NCBI GenBank assembly: GCA_038895375.1 | Contig: JAWANM010000001.1 | Coordinates: forward strand, 3,587-67,586 | Origin: Candidatus Pacearchaeota archaeon | GTDB lineage: Archaea > Nanobdellota > Nanobdellia > Pacearchaeales > UBA284 | Length of the DNA: 64,000 bases | Direction: 5' to 3' | In this document: positions 4,379 to 57,223 of the stretch, piece after piece | Numbering within the stretch: the stretch's first letter is position 1 | Layout: every line of letters starts with the position of its first letter | Position numbers and translations under genes: made by a program | Notes under the pieces: generated by a model | What the model was told of the DNA's origin: nothing | The model's input: only the letters and a program-made list of their open reading frames with translations | Database searches by the model: none

Positions 4379-5087
4379 TCTTTTTAAGCGCTTGTTTTTG
4401 TATTGTTTCCAGTTTCAAACAAACTTTTTTTCCAAGTTCTAAAGCTTCTTTAAGCTCTGAAAGAGTTATATGACCATCGAGATGTAACAAAGAAAGTTTT
4501 TTCGAGCGCGGAAGAAATGCTAAGGCTATATCTGTAGCTGCTTTGATCTCTTTTCCATCTTTCTTTATTTTGTATTGCTCTTCATCATGGCTAAGATCTA
4601 CAACAATAGCATTGCCGACTTTGCCAACAGAAACTGCAGTAACCAGTTCGCTCATAGGAACGCCTGCAGAGGCCAAAGCCATCGAAGCAGCGTTTATAGC
4701 AGCGCATCTTGTAGAAGCATCTGCTTCGAGAATTTCAACATAAACATCGATTACTGTATTTGGAAAAGGTTCAAGGAGTACTGCCGGCTCGAGCGCTCTC
4801 GTAATTTCATCTGAAATCTCCAAACTTCTACGGCTTGGACCAGGTCTTTTTCTTTCTGCTACAGAAAAACTTATCATGTCATAATAACATCTAAGTATTG
4901 CTTTTTTCGGATTTTGTAAATGCTGCGGATAAAGCTGTCTAGGTCCATAAACAGCTGCTATAGCTTTACTATTGCCAAAAGCAAAAAAAGCAGATCCGTC
5001 TGCTCTCTTAATTACATTTATTTTTGCTTCTATTTTTCTCGTTTCATCAAAAGCTCTACCATCGGGTCTATTGAATTTTTCGCTCAT
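4368..5087 (-). CDS. rrp41: Exosome complex exonuclease Rrp41 (RNase PH)
   Basis: RPDGRAFDETRKIEAKINVIKRADGSAFFAFGNSKAIAAVYGPR. 4-nt overlap with rrp4. Confidence 0.85.
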   Translation of the reverse strand: MSEKFNRPDGRAFDETRKIEAKINVIKRADGSAFFAFGNSKAIAAVYGPRQLYPQHLQNPKKAILRCYYDMISFSVAERKRPGPSRRSLEISDEITRALEPAVLLEPFPNTVIDVYVEILEADASTRCAAINAASMALASAGVPMSELVTAVSVGKVGNAIVVDLSHDEEQYKIKKDGKEIKAATDIALAFLPRSKKLSLLHLDGHITLSELKEALELGKKVCLKLETIQKQALKKIAE

Positions 5088-10780: not shown

Positions 10781-10920
10781 CAATCCCCTAAAAAGAGGAT
10801 TGAAATAAAGCATTTAGCGAAAGCTTTTTAAAGGGTCTTTGCTTGATGTTAGCATAAATGCTGGCCAGCGTTTCAATTCTGAAACGCGTAATTTGTAATT
10901 TATTGAAAGGAGGTTAGAAA

Positions 10921-13158
10921 ATGAAATTACTTAAAAAGATAGCACCTATTGCTGTCGGAGCAGTTTTAGGACTAGCAACTATGGGTAGCGCGATAGCAGC
11001 AGATCTAGGAACATGGAAAAACAACTTCCCAGCAGCAAACACGGTTGTTGTTGCTTACGATAGTGATGCTGCAGCCATCGCAGAAATTGCAAACTACCTA
11101 GGCCTAAGAGGCGGGACAACAATAACCGGTGAAAGCTGGGGATTTGAAAAATCAACAAACAAACTCAACTTAGGAGAAAACTTAAGTGAGATAAGACCTA
11201 CAATTTCAAAAGAACAACTGCCAACAATTCTTGCAGAAGGTACTTACTGGGACGAAGAAAATAATGAGCACAAGTATACGCAAAAAATAACAGTAGGCGA
11301 TCTCACATTAACGCACTTCCAGGATTATGACTACAAGGACAACGAACCTACACTCGGCTTTAAAATAACAGATACCAGCTCTATCTTGAATTACACCCTT
11401 ACATTCAGCGGAAGCGGACCTGAAATAGGAGACATGAATGGAACATCAATAGAAATGCTTGGTAGAGAGTTTTTCATCAGCAAAGCTGAGGCTGGAAAAA
11501 TAACACTATTAGAAACATCAACAAGAGCTACAATAGAAGAAGAGGAAACAGCTACTGTTGGAGGAAAAACAATAAAAATTAATTATTTCGTTGAAGATGG
11601 GAAGAAAGTATCTTTAATTGTTAATGGAGAGGAGACCAACCCTATAGAAGCAGGAAAAACATACAAGCTTCGTGACGGAACTGTTGTCGGAGTAAAAACA
11701 ATAATATTTGACAGAAGAGAAGGCCGTAAGAGTAAAGTTGTAGTAACAGTGGGAACAGGAAAAATAGAGCTTATCAATGATACAGAAGTAAAAATTAATG
11801 ATAAGACAGTATATGGTTTAAAATCATACATTGATGTACCCAGTAGCAATTTGAAATCGATAACTCTTGAATGGATAGCAGACGATGATTATTACATCGG
11901 GGCTGGTGACGAGCTTGTAATGCCTGGACTTAAGGCATTAAAGCTCATGATGACAGAAATGGTGTTCCCAGCAGGAGAAGACATAACAATAAAAGGAGAT
12001 GGAAGAAAAGCCAAGCTTGAGGTTCCGATAAAAGACGGAACAGCAAATATTGTTCTTTTAGAAGGTGATGGTACAAACTGGACAACAATCGGAGAAGAAG
12101 GTAGGGTATTAAAGACGACTCTTGGAAATGCGCTTATCGACCTAACTACAAGAGATAGGTTCTTCACAACATACATAAACGGTGAAGAAGGAGAATCTTA
12201 TTATTGGGAAGTGGAAAGCTTCGACACAGACAACAACAAAGTAACATTTAAAACATTAGTAGGAAGTAAAAGCTGCACTGTCGCAGAAGGTGATGATTGT
12301 GAAGTTGGCGAAGTTTCCTTCACAGTCACGGGCCTAAATGCAACTGCTAAAAAGGTGAACATAACCGCAGGTGAGTACGTCAATTTCCACACAATAGTGT
12401 CCAGCAAAGGAGCTCTTTTCTACCTTCCACAAACGGAAAATGGGAGTATATGGGGTTATCTAAATTCCTCAAACCCTACGGGATGGGTCTTAGGAATGTA
12501 CGAAGAGGACAAAGAAGGATACATTGGCTTCGGAAACTGGACAGCGTTTTTATTCGGATTTAATGACGATGGAAAAGCGACTGTTGCTGATGTAGATAGC
12601 GAGAAATGGGCTGGTGAAGGGATGCTAAAGAAAGGTGAAGACACTGAGATTGGTTATGTAGAATCGCCACTAGCGACAAAAGTTGTTTATGAAACTGGTG
12701 GAAGGCAAGATTATGCAATTGTAACATACTATGGCGAAGAGGTTTATGGAAATGTGTTCATTGCAGGAGCTGGTGCAGCAGCGGGTGGTGGAGAAGTTGC
12801 AATAACATACCCTGAGTTGACAGAAAGCATGAAAGCAACAAAGAACATCATAAGCATTGGTGGTTCTGGAGTCAACCCATTCAGCGCAGAGCTATTGTTC
12901 GGCTCACCTACGCTTGTTTATGGAAGCGACTCAAGATGGGTGAGCGCTACAGGCGTTGATGGTGTTGGCAAGGCGCTTGTTCAGCTATATCAAGGTACAT
13001 CAGCATGCCAGAAAGTTTGCTTGCTTGTAGCAGGATTCGAAGCAAGCGACACATTGAAAGCTGCAAGATTCTTAACAACAAAGGCTGATGAGTTGGCAGG
13101 AAAAACAAAAGCTGTGCTCGACACAACAGGAGACACTGCAAGCGTAATAACAACCTAA
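10921..13158 (+). CDS. S-layer / major cell-surface protein (secreted, 745 aa)
   Basis: Signal peptide MKLLKKIAPIAVGAVLGLATMGSAIAADLG. GGAGG SD at 10909-10913. GC content and codon usage differ from neighbours (highly expressed look). T/S/G-rich beta-type composition. T-rich terminator 13180-13230. All antisense ORFs inside are spurious. Confidence 0.6.
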   Translation: MKLLKKIAPIAVGAVLGLATMGSAIAADLGTWKNNFPAANTVVVAYDSDAAAIAEIANYLGLRGGTTITGESWGFEKSTNKLNLGENLSEIRPTISKEQLPTILAEGTYWDEENNEHKYTQKITVGDLTLTHFQDYDYKDNEPTLGFKITDTSSILNYTLTFSGSGPEIGDMNGTSIEMLGREFFISKAEAGKITLLETSTRATIEEEETATVGGKTIKINYFVEDGKKVSLIVNGEETNPIEAGKTYKLRDGTVVGVKTIIFDRREGRKSKVVVTVGTGKIELINDTEVKINDKTVYGLKSYIDVPSSNLKSITLEWIADDDYYIGAGDELVMPGLKALKLMMTEMVFPAGEDITIKGDGRKAKLEVPIKDGTANIVLLEGDGTNWTTIGEEGRVLKTTLGNALIDLTTRDRFFTTYINGEEGESYYWEVESFDTDNNKVTFKTLVGSKSCTVAEGDDCEVGEVSFTVTGLNATAKKVNITAGEYVNFHTIVSSKGALFYLPQTENGSIWGYLNSSNPTGWVLGMYEEDKEGYIGFGNWTAFLFGFNDDGKATVADVDSEKWAGEGMLKKGEDTEIGYVESPLATKVVYETGGRQDYAIVTYYGEEVYGNVFIAGAGAAAGGGEVAITYPELTESMKATKNIISIGGSGVNPFSAELLFGSPTLVYGSDSRWVSATGVDGVGKALVQLYQGTSACQKVCLLVAGFEASDTLKAARFLTTKADELAGKTKAVLDTTGDTASVITT

Positions 13159-15442: not shown

Positions 15443-17104
15443 TTATCTTTTACCGAGTAGTTTTTGTTTTCTTCTTATGCGTGCAATCATAATAATTATG
15501 CCAAGCAAAGCAACAATTACGCATGCAACAATAACAACAAGCCATCTCCATAATTCTGCTTTACCAAACTTTTTCTCTAAGATACTGCATTCTTTTGTTT
15601 CCTCTGGTTTTCTTTCTGCTGTGCCGCAATTATTCAAATCGATGCATGTTCTTGTTTTTACACCATCTACGCAAGAGCTCCAAGCAGTGCAATTCCAATT
15701 TGGTTCGCATTTACTCGGCTCTGAAATTGCTCTTAGCATTAAATCGACTTTGTTGTTGCTTATGCTCAAAACAGTTATTGAAAAATCATTTATGTTGTTC
15801 GCGTTCAAATCAAATTCTTTTGTTTCATTGATGTAAATAGTAGCAACAATCGAGTTGATTTCCAGAGTTGTTGAATTGCTCGTTATGTTCTTTACGGTAA
15901 TTATATGACTTTCATTACCAAGAGTAAAGTTGATTTTCTCGTCTTTTGCAACATTGTTTATAGTTTTGTTTGTTCCTGTTATGTTGCCAACGTCGTGTAT
16001 TCGAGCGGGGTTGCATTCTTTAGTATTGACATTACAGCCATAAGTGCAATATTCTATTGTTCGCCATGCATTGTTGATGCATTTTTGTAAAGCATCTCCG
16101 GAACATCTTTTTGCATTTTCAGTACATACTGTACCGCTTTCGCCATTTTCGCTTGTAGAAGACTTTATAGTTATACTCCATTTTTCAGAGCTGTCCGAAT
16201 TGCCAGCATAATCATAACACCTAACCTGCCATTCATAAGTGCCTCTTTCGAGTTCTATATCTGAAAATTCTTGCTGTGTACCATTTTCTATGCTAGTATC
16301 TGTTTGTCTTAAGCTGCCATCTATATACAAAGAACAATTCTTAATGCCAAAATTATCTGTAACATTGTACTTGAAATCTATGGTTGTTGAAGTTGTATTA
16401 TAATTGTTTGTCGGCGACTTTAAATGCACTTCTGGCTTTGTTGTGTCTATTGTCAAAGTTCTGTTGCTCGAGAAGTTACAATTGCCAGCAGCATCACAAG
16501 CTTGACAAGCCCATAAATAGCGTGCGTTTGCGGCTAAGCTCTGTGCAAATGTTGTTGTATTGTTTGTTCCTGAAACATTGCTCGAGTTTTTTGCACCCCA
16601 GCCAAACCAATTGCCGTAAAGCGTTATGTTACTCAAATTGTAATTGTCTTGAGCTGTACAATTAAAAGTTATGTTTGTAGTTGAAAAATTGGCATAAGCG
16701 ACTGGCGCGTTTAACATTATATTTGGTGCTGTAGTATCGTTTACTTTGAGTTCTAATGCAATGTTCCAAGATCCTGTTGCATTAGTGATAGTTATTGTTA
16801 AATTATAATCTCCAGGCTCTGAAACTGTGACGTTAAACCAAAAATGTTCAATAGAGTTGTTCATAACAAGACCGTCTTTTTCCCAGCTTAACACGCTTGA
16901 GGTGTTAGAAAAATTTGCTTCAGCAACACTGCTACCATTGGAATCTGCAATAAATATAAAGCCATCAGGCAAAGTTATATTAACTTGAGTTATATTTGAT
17001 TCTTCTGTTTCGTAACTATTGTTTATTGAAATATTAATCAAAGATGAAACGTCTTCGTTGATTGAATTTTCTTGTAGCCAAGCAGAATATTCCGCAAAAG
17101 TCAT
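15443..17104 (-). CDS. Cell-surface protein with C-terminal TM anchor and N-glycosylation-sequon-rich Ig-like repeats; signal peptide out of frame (see finding)
   Basis: C-terminus WRWLVVIVACVIVALLGIIIMIARIRRKQK (TM plus basic tail). Shares a ~75-aa block with the giant protease (NCTAQDNYNLSNITLYGNW...WACQACDAAGNC). A 45-codon ORF starting at 17171 encodes a signal peptide in another frame. Confidence 0.6.
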   Translation of the reverse strand: MTFAEYSAWLQENSINEDVSSLINISINNSYETEESNITQVNITLPDGFIFIADSNGSSVAEANFSNTSSVLSWEKDGLVMNNSIEHFWFNVTVSEPGDYNLTITITNATGSWNIALELKVNDTTAPNIMLNAPVAYANFSTTNITFNCTAQDNYNLSNITLYGNWFGWGAKNSSNVSGTNNTTTFAQSLAANARYLWACQACDAAGNCNFSSNRTLTIDTTKPEVHLKSPTNNYNTTSTTIDFKYNVTDNFGIKNCSLYIDGSLRQTDTSIENGTQQEFSDIELERGTYEWQVRCYDYAGNSDSSEKWSITIKSSTSENGESGTVCTENAKRCSGDALQKCINNAWRTIEYCTYGCNVNTKECNPARIHDVGNITGTNKTINNVAKDEKINFTLGNESHIITVKNITSNSTTLEINSIVATIYINETKEFDLNANNINDFSITVLSISNNKVDLMLRAISEPSKCEPNWNCTAWSSCVDGVKTRTCIDLNNCGTAERKPEETKECSILEKKFGKAELWRWLVVIVACVIVALLGIIIMIARIRRKQKLLGKR

Positions 17105-17224
17105 GGGAAAAAGAAGTAAAAATAATAATGCTAAAGAAAATGCAAAAGTAAAAATTAAATTTTTTTTTCATTTGCATCACCTTTTTAGCTTCAAAGCAAG
17201 TGCATGCTAAAAATCTTTCGTTTT

Positions 17225-20200
17225 TTATTTTCTTTTCTTTTTGAAAACTGCAAAGAAAATGGTAATAATTAAAGCCATCGCAACCAAAATTAAAACAATA
17301 TAAAGAGTTGGGAAAGAAACTTTTCTAGCTTCTTCTTGCTTTTCTTCTGCTTTGCCTTGAATTTTTTCTTCTCTAACTAGTGGCTCCGGCAGCTCCGGCA
17401 GTGTTATGTTTGTTATGTTTGTTTGATTTGTTGGGCCAATGTTTATAGTGCTAGCTCCGCCACCAGCGCCACCACCAGCACCGCCGCCAGCGCCGCCACC
17501 GCTGCTAGGAGAGTAATACATAGGAGCAAAGATGCTTGAATTAGCTATACTAACGTTTCCAGAATAAACATAATTGTGTTCTGTGTCGACTCCGCTGCTT
17601 GCAAGCTCGCTCCAAGAGCCATTATAAGCAAACATTTTCAAACTAGTTTCATCACTGATTTCTCTTTCATTATAGCTCATATTAAGATAGATCCACGAGC
17701 CTACTGATGCTGCAATTACATTGACAAATTTACCAATGTTTCTATAATTTCTCGGGTCTGGTGCTGGTGCTATTGTCTTGTTCAAAGCAATATTTTCTGA
17801 TATAAAGTTTATTGTTTCTTCCAAGCCGATATCAAAATAAGAGACTATATTGTTTGTTGAGTTTAGTGAAACAAATGCAAAAAATTGATTATTTTTCGAC
17901 TCGTCATCAATTAAAATGTTGTTATTGCTAGAAGAGTTAATAAATAAACCAATCTGATTATTGTTTGTTTCAGTTGAAATAATATAATTATCGCGACTAA
18001 ATCCTAAAAGAATACCAAATTCATTTGAATTGGCCTTTGTATTAAAAATACTGTTTTTTGAAGAAGAAAGAACTCCAATGCCTACATAATTATCATTAAA
18101 AGAAGAATTTGTTATGTTGTTGTGGTTAGAATTAAAAAGAGCCAAACCAAAATAATTACCGGAAGAATTGATTAGATCAAAAGTTGTATTTTCAGTTGCT
18201 AAAACAAGCAAGCCATTATTATCAAGACTCTCAGATCCAGCAATGGTTATGTTCTTAAGTGAAGAATTATCGGCATTGCATAAAATTAATTCTGAGAGAG
18301 TTTCATTTTCTAAGGTTACGCTAGAATTATAGAATTTTATTTCTCTGTCGCCAGAACCCGTGTTATTTTCTATAATATTATTACAATAAGTGTCAATATT
18401 AGCATAACCAATCAAATCGAACAAATTATTTTCTCTTATTATATTATCGATGATAACATTATTTTGACCATCTTCAAGATAAAGGCCATAATCATTATAT
18501 TCAAAAATGCTATCATTAATATTGTTGCCATTAGAATCTTCTAAATAAATTCCATAATAATTTCCAGAAGAATTAATCAAAGAAAAATTAGAATCATTTG
18601 TATAATAGACAAATATGCCATTGTTTTGCAAGTAATCTGAGCCGATAACAGTTACATTATAAATTGAAGAGCTATCGGCATCACACAAAATAAGTTCAGA
18701 AAAAATTTCGTCGCTTAAGTTAACACTTTCATTATAGAAGGCAATAGCTCTATCGCCAGAACCAGTAACATTTTCAATAAAGATACGATCACAACTAGAA
18801 TCTGATAAGCTATTAAACCCTACATCTTGCTGTAAGTTATCTTGAACATTGCAATTGCTTATGTTTATACTTAGCTCGCCGCTGACAGGAAGATCATAAA
18901 TATAAATGCCTGTACTAAAATTAGAAATTGTCAAATTAAAGATAGTTATATTTCCACCTTGAGCAGTGTTTATTCCGTAACCTGTGCTATTGCCAGTGAT
19001 GCTATAGCCGGCGCCATTAATTGTTATGTTATTTGAACCAATTGTGAAGCAAGTTCCATTGCTCTGTAAGTTTCCATTTAAAGTGCATGATTCATAAATT
19101 CTATCGCCACATGTATAAATCATGCCGCTTTCTGCAACACAGCCATAAGGAATTGTTAAAGTTCTATTGTTTGAAGCAAAAACACAATTTCCAGCAGCAT
19201 CACAAGCTTGACAATTCCAAACATAGGTTCCTGAATCAAGAATTTTTTCAAAAATTACTGGTATTGCATTTTCTGGCGAGCTATTGGTTTCGTTAGCGTG
19301 CCAGCCACCAGACCAATTGCCATAAAGAGTTACATTTGTTAAATTTACATTATCAGAAGCAGTACAATTAAATATAATATTTCTTGAGTTTGAAGTAAAG
19401 TTATCTTGTGGTTCGTTTAAAATAACTGTAGGTTCTCCAGATATTACGATTAAAGTTCTTGTTGTTGAAATGTTGATTATTCCTATATTTTCTTCCCAAC
19501 ACTGAATTTTCCAGTTGTAAATTCCTTCTTTACTAAGATTGTATGTTATTGTAGTAAATGTATTATTTTCTGCAATAGTTGTATTAACAATGGTGTTGTT
19601 TATTATTAAATCGCATGTCGCATTTGTTGCATTTTTATTTATCGTTGTAAAATTAAAAGTTATTAAAGAATTGTTTGTTATATAACCATTCTCTGGCGAG
19701 TTTAACAAGATGCTCGGCTTAAAGTTCGGCGCATTAACCACATGAGGATACTCGACTTCTACACCAACGCCGCTACAATTAAACCTTATATAAATATAAC
19801 CATTATCGCCCCATCCTGCTCCCCAGCTGTTTTTGACAATCCAATAACTAGTATTTATGTTTCCTGTATCATTATAACCCACAAGCAAGACGCCATGATT
19901 TAAATCAGACCAATTTTGTGGTATATTGCATGTACTATCATTGAACAAACCACCAGAATAGTTGAACCACGCACTGGTAGCTTTAACACCTATAATAATT
20001 GGACCATTATCTATCAATAATTGTTTGAGTTCTTCATTTGATAAAGGGACGGTAACATTTGGATAATTACTTATGTTGACGTTTGTTGTAAAATTAGTTA
20101 TGTTCCACAATCTGGTCGCATAATCTGAACATCTGTCTGAGCATATAGCGTTAGAACAGTTTCCTCCAGTATGGTAAACACATGATGTAGAGCAATTAGA

Positions 20201-21061
20201 ATTGGAGCAATTGCAATTCGTACCATCAACGTAATTAAAACAATTTTCGTCACTTATACCATCCCTCATAATAAAATCAAGGGCAACATCCATCCAACCA
20301 CCACAACAATTCTCATACGATCCATAATAAGGATCTGTGTGGCAGTTAGAAACAAGGTACTCTTCTGCAAGGTCAGGATTTAATCTTGAATTGTTCTGAT
20401 TAATCTCATACTTGGCCTCGAGAGAGGCTATAGTAGAAAAAGCCCAGCAAGAACCGCAAGAACCTTGATTCTTAACAGAAGTAAGCCATCCATGAATTTC
20501 GTCAAAAAATGTAAAATTATATTTGCTATAGTTTGTTCCATTCGGAGGATTGCGCCAGTCCCAATAAGGAAAATCAGAAGCATTATAAGTTTTAACTGGA
20601 ATTTCTTTGATTAATAATTTTGTATCCTCTCTAGATTCTTCAAAAAAATTCTCTTTAAAACTTTCTCTTGCTCTATTCTCTGCATAAATACATTTAGAAG
20701 ATTTTGTCAAGTCTAATAGCTCATTAACGGGAATTTCTTTCATAATTTTTTTACCTGTTTCGTTAGATGGAACAATACAAAAAGCCATGCCATTTTTGCT
20801 TTTAAGCTCATAGCCATGCTTAGAACAGTAAGAAAATTCCTTGCCGCATTCGCCTCTCAAAAAAGACCATTCTTCGCATCTTTCTTTATTTGGCATCACA
20901 CAAATGCCTTTCTGGCCTAAAGCAGTTTCTACAATTTTATATTCATAACCCAATTCGCTACAATAAACTGCCGCAGGGTTTGGTAATGCAGAAACATAAC
21001 TTGTAAGAAAAATTAAAGCGAATATCACAAAGATAATCAAAAAAAATCTTGAGATTCTCAT
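17225..21061 (-). CDS. Giant membrane-anchored surface protein: signal peptide, DUF333-like modules, papain-family (C1) cysteine peptidase domain, Ig-like/beta-helix repeats, (GGGA)n linker, C-terminal TM
   Basis: NPAAVYCSELGY..GICVMPNKERCEEWSFLRGECG (DUF333). QGSCGSCWAFS (C1 catalytic Cys), LNHGVLLVGY (His), IVKNSWG (Asn). Right-handed beta-helix-like repeats (NITIFNLTISNFSTGIYIYD...). GGGAGGGAGGGAGGGAS. C-terminus LYIVLILVAMALIITIFFAVFKKKRK. Confidence 0.75.
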   Translation of the reverse strand: MRISRFFLIIFVIFALIFLTSYVSALPNPAAVYCSELGYEYKIVETALGQKGICVMPNKERCEEWSFLRGECGKEFSYCSKHGYELKSKNGMAFCIVPSNETGKKIMKEIPVNELLDLTKSSKCIYAENRARESFKENFFEESREDTKLLIKEIPVKTYNASDFPYWDWRNPPNGTNYSKYNFTFFDEIHGWLTSVKNQGSCGSCWAFSTIASLEAKYEINQNNSRLNPDLAEEYLVSNCHTDPYYGSYENCCGGWMDVALDFIMRDGISDENCFNYVDGTNCNCSNSNCSTSCVYHTGGNCSNAICSDRCSDYATRLWNITNFTTNVNISNYPNVTVPLSNEELKQLLIDNGPIIIGVKATSAWFNYSGGLFNDSTCNIPQNWSDLNHGVLLVGYNDTGNINTSYWIVKNSWGAGWGDNGYIYIRFNCSGVGVEVEYPHVVNAPNFKPSILLNSPENGYITNNSLITFNFTTINKNATNATCDLIINNTIVNTTIAENNTFTTITYNLSKEGIYNWKIQCWEENIGIINISTTRTLIVISGEPTVILNEPQDNFTSNSRNIIFNCTASDNVNLTNVTLYGNWSGGWHANETNSSPENAIPVIFEKILDSGTYVWNCQACDAAGNCVFASNNRTLTIPYGCVAESGMIYTCGDRIYESCTLNGNLQSNGTCFTIGSNNITINGAGYSITGNSTGYGINTAQGGNITIFNLTISNFSTGIYIYDLPVSGELSINISNCNVQDNLQQDVGFNSLSDSSCDRIFIENVTGSGDRAIAFYNESVNLSDEIFSELILCDADSSSIYNVTVIGSDYLQNNGIFVYYTNDSNFSLINSSGNYYGIYLEDSNGNNINDSIFEYNDYGLYLEDGQNNVIIDNIIRENNLFDLIGYANIDTYCNNIIENNTGSGDREIKFYNSSVTLENETLSELILCNADNSSLKNITIAGSESLDNNGLLVLATENTTFDLINSSGNYFGLALFNSNHNNITNSSFNDNYVGIGVLSSSKNSIFNTKANSNEFGILLGFSRDNYIISTETNNNQIGLFINSSSNNNILIDDESKNNQFFAFVSLNSTNNIVSYFDIGLEETINFISENIALNKTIAPAPDPRNYRNIGKFVNVIAASVGSWIYLNMSYNEREISDETSLKMFAYNGSWSELASSGVDTEHNYVYSGNVSIANSSIFAPMYYSPSSGGGAGGGAGGGAGGGASTINIGPTNQTNITNITLPELPEPLVREEKIQGKAEEKQEEARKVSFPTLYIVLILVAMALIITIFFAVFKKKRK

Positions 21062-21414: not shown

Positions 21415-21740
21415 GCAGTTGAGAAGTTGGCTCTCCGGAAGGAGGAAGGTCCGCTCACCCCATCAAATTTTTGATGGAAGTGGCCGGCTTTCGCAAGAAA
21501 GCTTGCCGCGAGGCAAAGCTCTGCCACAGAAACGACACAGCTCTTGCTGAGAAATGAAGCTTGCGCAGATCTTTGAAGCAAGAGATTTGATGAAACGCCT
21601 CGAAAGAGGGACGCAAAAAATTTTTGCGTCGGCAACTCGGCCGGTGCAACTCGCATTCGCGAGGCTTAGTAGGATGCCAACATGGTCTGTTTGAAGCCAA
21701 AACTTCAAAGACCAACAAAAAGCGGCCTATTCTCAACTGC
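21415..21740 (+). ncRNA. rnpB: Structured GC-rich ncRNA, most likely RNase P RNA
   Basis: 340-nt GC-rich island with no coherent ORF. Termini form a perfect 10-bp helix (GCAGTTGAGA 21415-21424 / TCTCAACTGC 21731-21740). P3-like hairpin CUCC-GGAA-GGAG followed by GAAGGUCCGCUC (like CR-I GGAAAGUCCGGGCUC). ACAAAAAGCGGCCUAU near the 3' end (like CR-V ACAGAANCCGGCUUA) can pair with GGUCCGC (P4). Followed by hairpin GCTCGG-CTATC-CCGAGC plus TTTT. Confidence 0.6.
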
Positions 21741-53008: not shown

Positions 53009-53174
53009 ATTGAGAGCTATGTCTAAAGAAGAACTCGAAGAAAAATTGAAACAGCTAAAATTAGAAATTTTAAAAATAAAAAGTAAAAAGGGACAAACAC
53101 CTAGTGGAACTAAAAAAATTAAAGAAATTAAAAAAACCATAGCTAGAATTTATACTAAGTTGAAAGAAAAATAA
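52986..53174 (+). CDS. rpl29: Ribosomal protein L29 (uL29)
   Basis: MAIIRKSELRAMSKEELEEKLKQLKLEILKIK. Confidence 0.85.
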   Translation: MAIIRKSELRAMSKEELEEKLKQLKLEILKIKSKKGQTPSGTKKIKEIKKTIARIYTKLKEK

Positions 53175-56335: not shown

Positions 56336-56888
56336 AATGAAAAAGTGCATAGAAAAAGTTCTTGAAATACCGGAAGACGTGATTGTTAAAATTGAAAACA
56401 ACACAGTCATAGTAAAAGGACCTCTTGGAGAGTGCAAACGCGATTTTCAGTTTAGAGACATTGAAAAAAAAATAGAAGATAGAAGATTGATTTTGAAAAA
56501 AGAAAAAGCAACAAAAAAAGAAAAAAGAATAATGCATGCAATCGCTTCACATATAGACAATATGATTAAAGGTGTAAAGAAAAAATACGAGTATGTGTTA
56601 GAGATATGCTCTATACATTTCCCGATGAACGTAAAAGTAGAAGAAAATAAAATAATAGTCAAAAATTTTCTCGGAGAAAGAAAAGAAAGGATAATCGAAT
56701 TGCTTCCAGAGGTAGAAATAGAAATAAAAGGTAATAAAATATTTGTAAGATCTGTAGATAAAGAAAAAGCCGGAAGACAAGCTGCTTTAATTGAAAGTAT
56801 TTCAAGAAAAGTTCCACGAGACAAAAGAGTTTTCCAGGACGGAATCTGGATAATAAAAAAAGAAAAAGGTAAAAGGGAAGAAAAATGA
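56319..56888 (+). CDS. rpl6: Ribosomal protein L6 (uL6)
   Basis: Position in operon. L6-like sequence. Confidence 0.85.
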   Translation: MPIVFKMKKCIEKVLEIPEDVIVKIENNTVIVKGPLGECKRDFQFRDIEKKIEDRRLILKKEKATKKEKRIMHAIASHIDNMIKGVKKKYEYVLEICSIHFPMNVKVEENKIIVKNFLGERKERIIELLPEVEIEIKGNKIFVRSVDKEKAGRQAALIESISRKVPRDKRVFQDGIWIIKKEKGKREEK

Positions 56889-57223
56889 AGAAAAGAAAAC
56901 CAAAGTTTGTGAGAAAAGATAGCTACAGAATTTCAAGACTTGGGAAAAGAAGAAAAAAGAAATTGAAGTGGAGAAGACCTAAAGGAAGACATAGTAAAAT
57001 AAGAGAAAAAAGAAAAGGATACTTAAAACAACCTTCAATAGGTTATGGCTCGCCAAAACGTTCGCATGCCAAGCTCATACATAACTTGAGCGAGCTTGAA
57101 AGCTGCAAAGAAAATGAAGAAATAATCATAGCGCACGTAGGAAAGAAAAAAAGGAGAGAGATTATAAAAAAAGCTTTAGAAAAAAAAATCAAAATTCTAA
57201 ATTTAAAGCCAGAGGAAAAATGA
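56885..57223 (+). CDS. rpl32e: Ribosomal protein L32e
   Basis: Position in operon. K/R-rich. Confidence 0.8.
   Translation: MKKRKPKFVRKDSYRISRLGKRRKKKLKWRRPKGRHSKIREKRKGYLKQPSIGYGSPKRSHAKLIHNLSELESCKENEEIIIAHVGKKKRREIIKKALEKKIKILNLKPEEK

Follow-up and report, generated by a model that had tools for sequence, protein, structure and literature searches.

The window analysed here (a stretch of 64 kb of DNA) carries on its minus strand a gene for a large surface glycoprotein in which the start codon is directly followed by nine A residues (A9), and this ATG is offset by one base from the frame of the protein's leader and body. We consider it probable (about 0.6) that A9 is a real allele produced by +1 slippage, OFF or much lowered in expression and reversible in principle; among an error, a mutation and a switch, a plain recent slippage allele was favoured. 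The window also holds an archaeal RNase P RNA, five tRNAs and an archaeal ribosomal-protein cluster, and the homologues of the gene are named Candidatus Pacearchaeota (DPANN archaea). The coordinates of all features are listed in Table 1.

The start of the gene was read directly on the minus strand as GGTGATGCAA-ATG-AAAAAAAAA-TTTAATT or, in a wider view, as ...GCTAAAAAGGTGATGCAA-ATG-AAAAAAAAA-TTTAATTTTTACTTTTGC.... The frame of the ATG runs to a stop at 17034 and amounts to 48 codons when counted from GTG 17180. The frame of the 553-aa ORF is open upstream of Met 17104 as far as a TGA that overlaps the ATG (aTGA), and this extension reads KKNLIFTFAFSLALLFLLLFP; leader and body thus share a frame throughout, and the ATG alone is displaced by one base. 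When the length of the tract was varied in simulation, A8 and A11 gave a single ORF of 575 and 576 aa, respectively, beginning MKKNLIFTFAFSLALLFLLLFPMTFAEYS, and no single fused ORF was obtained with A7, A9 or A10. The leader has the organization of a Sec-type (class I) signal peptide (a basic MKK, then the hydrophobic NLIFTFAFSLALLFLLLF, then PMTFA before the EYS of the mature protein), with a hydropathy above 2 across residues 3-27; both this organization and the cleavage site were judged by eye, the latter using the -3/-1 rule of small residues.

Table 1. Features of the surface glycoprotein gene and its surroundings (positions are those of the window).
Feature	Position	Strand	Remarks
Start codon ATG, ancestral for the surface glycoprotein gene	17169..17171	-	Start of the 574-aa orthologues
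A9 homopolymer (plus-strand T9)	17160..17168	-	Directly after the ATG; A8 in nine related assemblies
45-codon out-of-frame ORF, read from the ATG in the A9 allele (MKKKFNFYFCIFF...)	17034..17171	-	
553-aa ORF, begins MTFAEYS at internal Met23	15443..17104	-	Annotated as MEM4640925.1
Signal-peptide coding region, in the frame of the body (KKNLIFTFAFSLALLFLLLFPMTFA)	17093..17167	-	Predicted cleavage after Ala26 (between TFA and EYS)
Shine-Dalgarno-like AGGTGAT	17176..17182	-	4 nt before ATG 17171; 5 nt in relatives
29-nt insertion/deletion polymorphism, intergenic	17183..17211	-	Just upstream of the Shine-Dalgarno-like motif
C-terminal transmembrane anchor (WRWLVVIVACVIVALLGIIIMIA), then basic tail RIRRKQKLLGKR	15482..15550	-	Kyte-Doolittle scan
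Upstream neighbour, 1278-aa secreted papain-family protease with a beta-helix region	17225..21061	-	

A preliminary description of this DNA had proposed that A9, right after the ATG, splits a signal peptide from the 553-aa body, and both the direct reading and the orthologues described below bore this out. The same description had taken the 45-codon ORF for the hydrophobic leader; this did not hold, as the 45 codons are a read-through of the wrong frame and the true leader lies in the frame of the body itself. The 45-codon ORF looks hydrophobic because the DNA is T-rich. It is probably a by-product without a function of its own, and by exact look-up the out-of-frame products of 45, 47 or 48 aa were absent from the records of every other assembly.

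The Shine-Dalgarno-like AGGTGAT is a 7-nt match to AGGAGGTGATC; about 0.1% of random positions match over 7 nt or more, and just one other such match was found among the 73 gene starts in the window. No such motif precedes ATG 17104. AGGTGAT was rejected as a genome-wide ribosome-binding site, since 58 of the 73 starts are without a Shine-Dalgarno-like match, the same as random positions; because these motifs are rare in the genome, its presence supports a start at ATG 17171 only weakly.

Orthologue P0001 (574 aa) is 96% identical to the repaired protein over 100% of its length, begins with MKKNLIFTFAFSLALLFLLLFPMTFAEYS as the repaired N-terminus does, and has an identical 22-residue leader. 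In the DNA of P0001 and of eight further assemblies the sequence is GC-AAAA-TG-A8-TTT, in frame, followed by leader DNA identical to that of the window; this agreement exceeds what coincidence would give. These nine assemblies (five NCBI MAGs, the rest Logan run assemblies) represent at least three haplotypes; they are 0-7 nt per 1620 nt apart, and about 50 nt separate the window from each of them. There is one OFF allele, the A9 of the window, on a lineage that is about 3% diverged, against nine ON assemblies (A8), and beyond the A9 of the window no second variant in tract length was found. The earlier prediction that one A fewer would fuse the leader to MTFAEYS is what the nine assemblies have: exactly A8, followed by the predicted leader.

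The comparison of orthologues that had been suggested at the same time showed an in-frame A8 to be the ancestral state and none of the distant orthologues to be leaderless: a leader is present in every one of those at 71%, 48% and lower identity, as is the same junction to the mature protein, A followed by (E/D/N)Y. Met23 lies in a 2-residue insertion specific to the lineage and so is not a conserved start. The orthologue at 71% identity starts ATG AAG AAA GTC, without a long A run; as A8 has no counterpart there, the tract is lineage-specific and does not constitute a conserved switch. Among the orthologues the tract did not appear to be maintained beyond codon usage, and a conserved two-frame arrangement was not found, the ten homologous loci examined all being single-frame. 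Members of 552/553 aa in the 90% cluster of P0001 were considered as independent frameshifted alleles and rejected: the DNA of L004, L005 and L006 has A8 in frame, and since the upstream ATG is in frame in all three, the short proteins reflect the annotator's choice of start. The 553-aa member P0071 of this cluster is the gene of the window itself.

Scans of genome contigs and metagenome contigs with a variable-tract DNA pattern gave 0 matches. A second assembly of the window's strain was not found by exact look-ups of the 553-, 198- and 1278-aa proteins, and A9 therefore stands on a single consensus sequence.

The body of the protein contains Ig-like Big_7 and Big_13 domains, both above Pfam's thresholds, and 19 Cys. 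As the preliminary description had stated, the 553-aa ORF is full of N-glycosylation sequons and ends in a transmembrane anchor (detected by a Kyte-Doolittle scan): 35 N-X-S/T sequons were counted, against 13.5 ± 3.1 in shuffled sequences. No sequence relatives of the glycoprotein were found in the PDB. A match to the NCBIfam RIFIN family was spurious (16.8 bits, with a cutoff of 177). The 1278-aa protease encoded upstream has a C-terminal transmembrane anchor of its own and, judging from the translations, an Ig-like module in common with the 553-aa protein. Since the spacer between the two genes is only 24-53 nt, co-transcription with internal initiation at AGGTGAT is plausible, and on the basis of this spacer length the two genes are probably co-transcribed.

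Comparison of the gene body with the relatives gave 29 synonymous and 20-22 non-synonymous differences (dS 0.09, dN/dS 0.17-0.19), values that do not discriminate between a recent frameshift, continued expression and an error. The 553 codons contain no further stop or frameshift. The marks of a decaying pseudogene were not seen, a result of low power that speaks against an old inactivation only. Given purifying selection and an intact body, three accounts are compatible with the data: a frameshift that is recent relative to the split of the strains, a gene that continues to be expressed, or an additional A that arose in error.

Of the maximal A/T runs in the window, 146 have 7 nt, 46 have 8 nt and 4 have 9 nt, with no run reaching 10 nt. 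Log-linear extrapolation from the counts at lengths 4-8 would lead one to expect about 24 runs of 9 nt and about 20 that are longer. Depletion of runs of about 9 nt has been interpreted as selection against slippage-prone runs (Baranov et al., PMC1088944). With runs of 9 and more depleted in the window, the A9 allele has a length that the genome otherwise avoids. The T9 at 17160-17168 is the sole T9 in the window and, being in the longest run class, has one mark of a contingency locus, a repeat that is long for its genome. Runs of A8 close to the ATG were also found in housekeeping genes of the window, i.e. those for a CDP-alcohol phosphatidyltransferase (directly after the ATG), L22 and S3, which makes A8 the default of Lys-rich N-termini at 34% GC.

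The quality of the assembly was assessed by comparison with relatives over about 18 kb, i.e. 4.9 kb around the gene and 13.2 kb of the ribosomal-protein region. In the 4.9 kb, the other insertions or deletions either keep the frame (9 nt, 3 nt) or lie between genes (29 nt, 1 nt). In the 13.2 kb, compared with L008 (97.3% identity), 0 of 63 A/T runs of 7 or more had changed length, and four were altered by substitution. In all, length differences from the relatives were found at 0 of about 69 other A/T runs of 7 or more. The two coding A9 runs, which lie within the genes for L6 and L32e (at 56464 and 57180), are in frame and have the same length in L008. Other broken genes or frame-breaking insertions or deletions were not evident in the 64 kb, nor were there long startless 5' extensions other than overlaps with neighbouring genes. 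By these measures the assembly looks clean. A scan for homopolymers at which an edit of +1 or -1 fuses ORFs was uninformative, as it flagged every run inside a gene.

The Tengchong hot-spring set comprises 2,949 archaeal MAGs, obtained by Illumina HiSeq 4000 sequencing (2x150), metaSPAdes assembly and reassembly with SPAdes --careful (PMC11770067). The accessions of the relatives fall inside this set, and MEM4640924.1, a gene neighbouring the one described here in the window, has the locus tag QXW65_00135, of the same QX.. series as the relatives. Judging from the series of locus tags and accessions, the MAG of the window very probably comes from the same project and would hence be an Illumina/SPAdes assembly. 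Homopolymer errors seldom become fixed in Illumina de Bruijn assemblies, and this favours a real A9 allele.

The course of events that we favour starts from the 574-aa Pacearchaeota surface glycoprotein, of which the gene is the orthologue, with its predicted Sec-type signal peptide, Ig-like domains, heavy potential for N-glycosylation and membrane anchor. This lineage spells the Lys-Lys-Asn after the ATG as AAA AAA AAT, giving a run of A8, and in the window's strain A8 would have become A9, most likely through slipped-strand mispairing in replication; 5' poly(A) tracts have been recognised as hot spots for frameshifts (PMC2831843). With A9, ribosomes starting at ATG 17171 would read the 45-codon nonsense frame, and the signal peptide and body are intact in the next frame, lacking a start codon until the non-conserved Met23. 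A start at Met23 would be made without a ribosome-binding motif, and the resulting protein would have no export signal. With no usable start before Met23, the allele would be OFF or strongly reduced, and it would also be young, as the intact body and the purifying selection on it indicate. A slip of -1 could reverse the allele, and some full-length product may leak from A9 via slippage of RNA polymerase or of the ribosome.

The alternative that deserves most attention, although we hold it to be doubtful, is that the strain in truth has A8 and an intact gene, the additional A having been introduced by stutter at the homopolymer or by polishing of the consensus. No run in the window is longer than A9, which is also the length most prone to PCR and sequencing stutter; it was seen in one assembly only, its leader DNA is identical to that of the in-frame relatives, and an intact body under purifying selection fits an intact gene affected by an error equally well. 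Against an artefact, the combination of 2x150 Illumina reads and SPAdes --careful rarely fixes homopolymer errors (the membership of the window in the project being deduced from its accessions), the roughly 69 other A/T runs of 7 or more, including A9 in L6 and L32e, have the same length as in the relatives, and the window has no other frame-breaking insertion or deletion. The 553-aa ORF could instead be the true product, starting at Met23 (17104) and needing no signal peptide; the public record gives this start both for the present gene and for three relatives that are in frame. This we find hardly credible, considering that the relatives have an upstream ATG in frame and owe their short calls to the annotator, that Met23 is neither conserved nor preceded by a Shine-Dalgarno-like motif, and that a protein so rich in Cys and sequons, and anchored at its C-terminus, has to be exported.

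An evolved contingency locus, in which the tract is kept for advantageous ON/OFF slipped-strand switching (e.g. in host contact or virus evasion), is unlikely. Such a locus would be consistent with a surface-exposed protein whose tract stands right after the start codon, the cleanest position for OFF, with an architecture like that of the 5' poly(A) tract in Listeria inlA (PMC2831843), with ON (A8) and OFF (A9) lengths in one species-level group, and with the genome's avoidance of other runs of 9 and more. It is contradicted by the start of the 71% orthologue (ATG AAG AAA GTC), which shows that the tract is not conserved, by nine assemblies of at least three haplotypes that all have A8 while the lone A9 sits on a lineage diverged by about 3%, and by the A8 runs near the ATG of housekeeping genes. 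Equally improbable, in our estimate, is a tract that serves as a working ON/OFF switch, or as a leaky one rescued by slippage, of a surface glycoprotein for host contact in a DPANN archaeon. Obligatory recoding, with A9 as the normal state and the full-length protein made via transcriptional slippage (A8 or A11 mRNA) or +1 ribosomal slippage on AAA AAA AAA, is very improbable. The tract does have the length, about 9 A/T, from which a homopolymer is effectively slippery in many bacteria, and a 9A run in Thermus dnaX gives about 50% slipped product (both PMC1088944); ribosomes slide on poly(A) (PMC4363877), and homopolymer frameshifts can be partly rescued by slippage (PMC5009743; PMC8254509). 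Recoding sites are, however, recognised by a conserved out-of-frame arrangement and every homologue here is in frame; moreover, the in-frame A9 runs in the essential and highly expressed L6 and L32e genes suggest inefficient slippage at A9 in this organism. No report of slippage by an archaeal RNA polymerase was found in the literature searched. The preliminary description had left the choice between a length error and an ON/OFF switch. The error is weakened by the clean runs and the Illumina/SPAdes origin of the relatives, nothing was found in favour of the switch having evolved, and the two together omitted the plainest option, the recent and ordinary slippage mutation that we prefer.

Contingency loci with poly-G/C or poly-A tracts are found in surface genes of Neisseria, Haemophilus, Campylobacter and Mycoplasma. 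The present gene resembles these classical loci in having a mononucleotide tract in the 5' part of a surface gene and, possibly, in having ON and OFF lengths among close relatives, the A9 lineage being about 3% diverged; the classical tracts, in contrast, are conserved, tend to be longer, are present at numerous loci of a genome and differ in length inside clonal populations. The parallel with inlA of Listeria monocytogenes (Orsi, Bowen & Wiedmann 2010, PMC2831843) extends to a surface gene with a poly(A) tract a few codons past the ATG, inside the signal-peptide region, in which a one-base change in length leads to a short truncated peptide and is reversible by slippage. Unlike inlA, the present case is one instance, in an archaeon, known from consensus sequences alone, and its tract is missing in the 71% orthologue.

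Transcriptional slippage at 9A/9T has been described for Thermus thermophilus dnaX, for IS elements and for the rescue of Buchnera and Blochmannia genes (Baranov et al. 2005, PMC1088944; Atkins et al. 2016, PMC5009743). Those systems share with the window a slippage-prone length, a depletion of runs of 9 and more, and a frame that is restored in an mRNA losing one A; where such slippage is put to use, homologues keep the out-of-frame arrangement, whereas here it occurs in one assembly only. Ribosome sliding (Koutmou et al. 2015, PMC4363877) is comparable in that AAA AAA AAA directly after the AUG is a type of sequence that makes ribosomes lose the frame, but it was demonstrated in E. coli and eukaryotes and on longer tracts, and the present case is archaeal and read from sequence. 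The mechanism proposed here is of a well-known kind and its instance in a DPANN archaeon is new; as it stands, it is a single ordinary homopolymer frameshift.

A real A9 would mean that an episymbiotic archaeon has, in one natural population, silenced or lowered a large glycosylated surface protein through a reversible mutation of the simplest sort, and the locus, together with the multi-year Tengchong hot-spring series (2016-2021) that seems to be its source, would offer a cheap test of surface variation by slippage in DPANN archaea. Should a switch or a rescue be true, it would document homopolymer phase variation, or rescue by RNA-polymerase slippage, in an archaeon; neither was found in the literature searched. 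There is also a lesson for annotation. The public record (P0071, MEM4640925.1) treats the frameshifted gene as a normal protein, a plain 553-aa "Ig-like domain-containing protein" in which the frameshift is unflagged. Because three in-frame relatives are likewise annotated from the internal Met, protein lengths in the database mislead on the state of the tract.

The spacer upstream of the gene was also compared. Its 29-nt segment is present in the window and in L006, L010, L011 and L012, and missing in L002-L005. The window has A3-TG-A9 where the relatives have A4-TG-A8, of equal total length. That the two differences are one compensated event was considered and set aside, as A3 restores no frame and the spacer is prone to insertions and deletions; the A3 and A9 changes were taken to have arisen independently, with one complex event or a substitution of 3 nt as possible alternatives. 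In L004, a scaffold gap falls exactly at this point. The variation in the spacer comprises T2/T3, A4/A5 (between L006 and L012) and an insertion of 28 or 29 nt.

The lengths of the A/T runs were tabulated across the window. Runs of seven and eight nucleotides were counted 146 and 46 times, respectively; four runs reached nine, and no run was longer. The expectation from a log-linear fit was about 24 runs of nine and about 20 of at least 10. The counts at both lengths fall far below this fit, and the distribution suggests that runs of nine or more are selected against in this genome. The drop-off between lengths 8 and 9 was abrupt. Two of the A9 runs lie in frame within ribosomal protein genes, those for L6 and L32e (see the table), and both are also A9 in L008, a related MAG contig. 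These two runs could be used as internal controls for A9 stutter and slippage.

Features located in the window (positions in the window; strand where recorded)
Feature	Position	Strand	Remarks
7-nt SD-like match	10899-10920		ahead of the 745-aa ORF at 10921 (large secreted protein)
7-nt SD-like match	17176-17182		ahead of the glycoprotein start, 17171
28/29-nt insertion	17183-17211	-	strain-polymorphic; protease-glycoprotein gene spacer, relatives compared
Archaeal RNase P RNA	21415-21740	+	97.8 bits, full length
A9 run, in frame	56464-56472	+	within the ribosomal protein L6 gene
A9 run, in frame	57180-57188	+	within the ribosomal protein L32e gene

The S3/L29 gene junction was compared with L008 as part of a 13.2 kb alignment. 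The alignment contains a single gap pair, which is located at this junction, immediately 5' of an ATG (53013-53018, +): a -1 and a +1 gap that lie 5 nt from each other and compensate. The pair leaves the total length unchanged, as does A3-TG-A9 relative to A4-TG-A8 at the glycoprotein tract.

The genome has few SD-like motifs: they are absent at 58 of the 73 gene starts in the window, a share about the same as at random positions. Only two of the 73 starts carry 7-nt matches, and both matches precede genes for large secreted proteins. In the related assemblies L004 (GCA_038819655.1), L005 (GCA_038866855.1) and L006 (GCA_038855415.1), the glycoprotein is annotated as 552 aa from an internal Met, and the DNA of all three has the upstream ATG and the leader in frame; these annotations are start-site miscalls that mimic the truncated protein of the window.

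The 28/29-nt insertion in the spacer between the protease and glycoprotein genes is polymorphic among strains. At exactly the insertion point, L004 has a run of N (at about 4700-4800), a scaffold gap with duplicated flanks, and L012, a further related assembly, has A5 in the spacer where L006 has A4. Together with the spacer polymorphism, the gap and the A5/A4 difference hint that variants co-exist within samples.

As judged from the translations, the papain-family protease (1278 aa; 17225-21061, minus strand) and the 553-aa protein (15443-17104, minus strand) have in common the module NCTAxDNxNLxNxTLYGNW...CxACDAAGNC...NRTLTI, and both end in a TM helix followed by a basic tail. A low-complexity stretch, (GGGA)n, also occurs in the protease. 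Close to its C-terminus, a 9-nt tandem duplication (CTGCCGGAG, two copies, 17384-17401, minus strand) encodes ...LPELPEP...; the protease gene of the relatives has one copy. The exact 1278-aa product had no entry in the protein collection searched, and the products of the neighbouring genes were present. The archaeal RNase P RNA lies directly upstream of the DUF333 and protease genes.

At its 5' end (1-590), the L008 contig carries a gene for a RE_BsaWI-like restriction enzyme, broken by a short N gap. This segment gave no alignment to the window upstream of 48664, and the gene may be strain-specific content adjoining the ribosomal protein operon.
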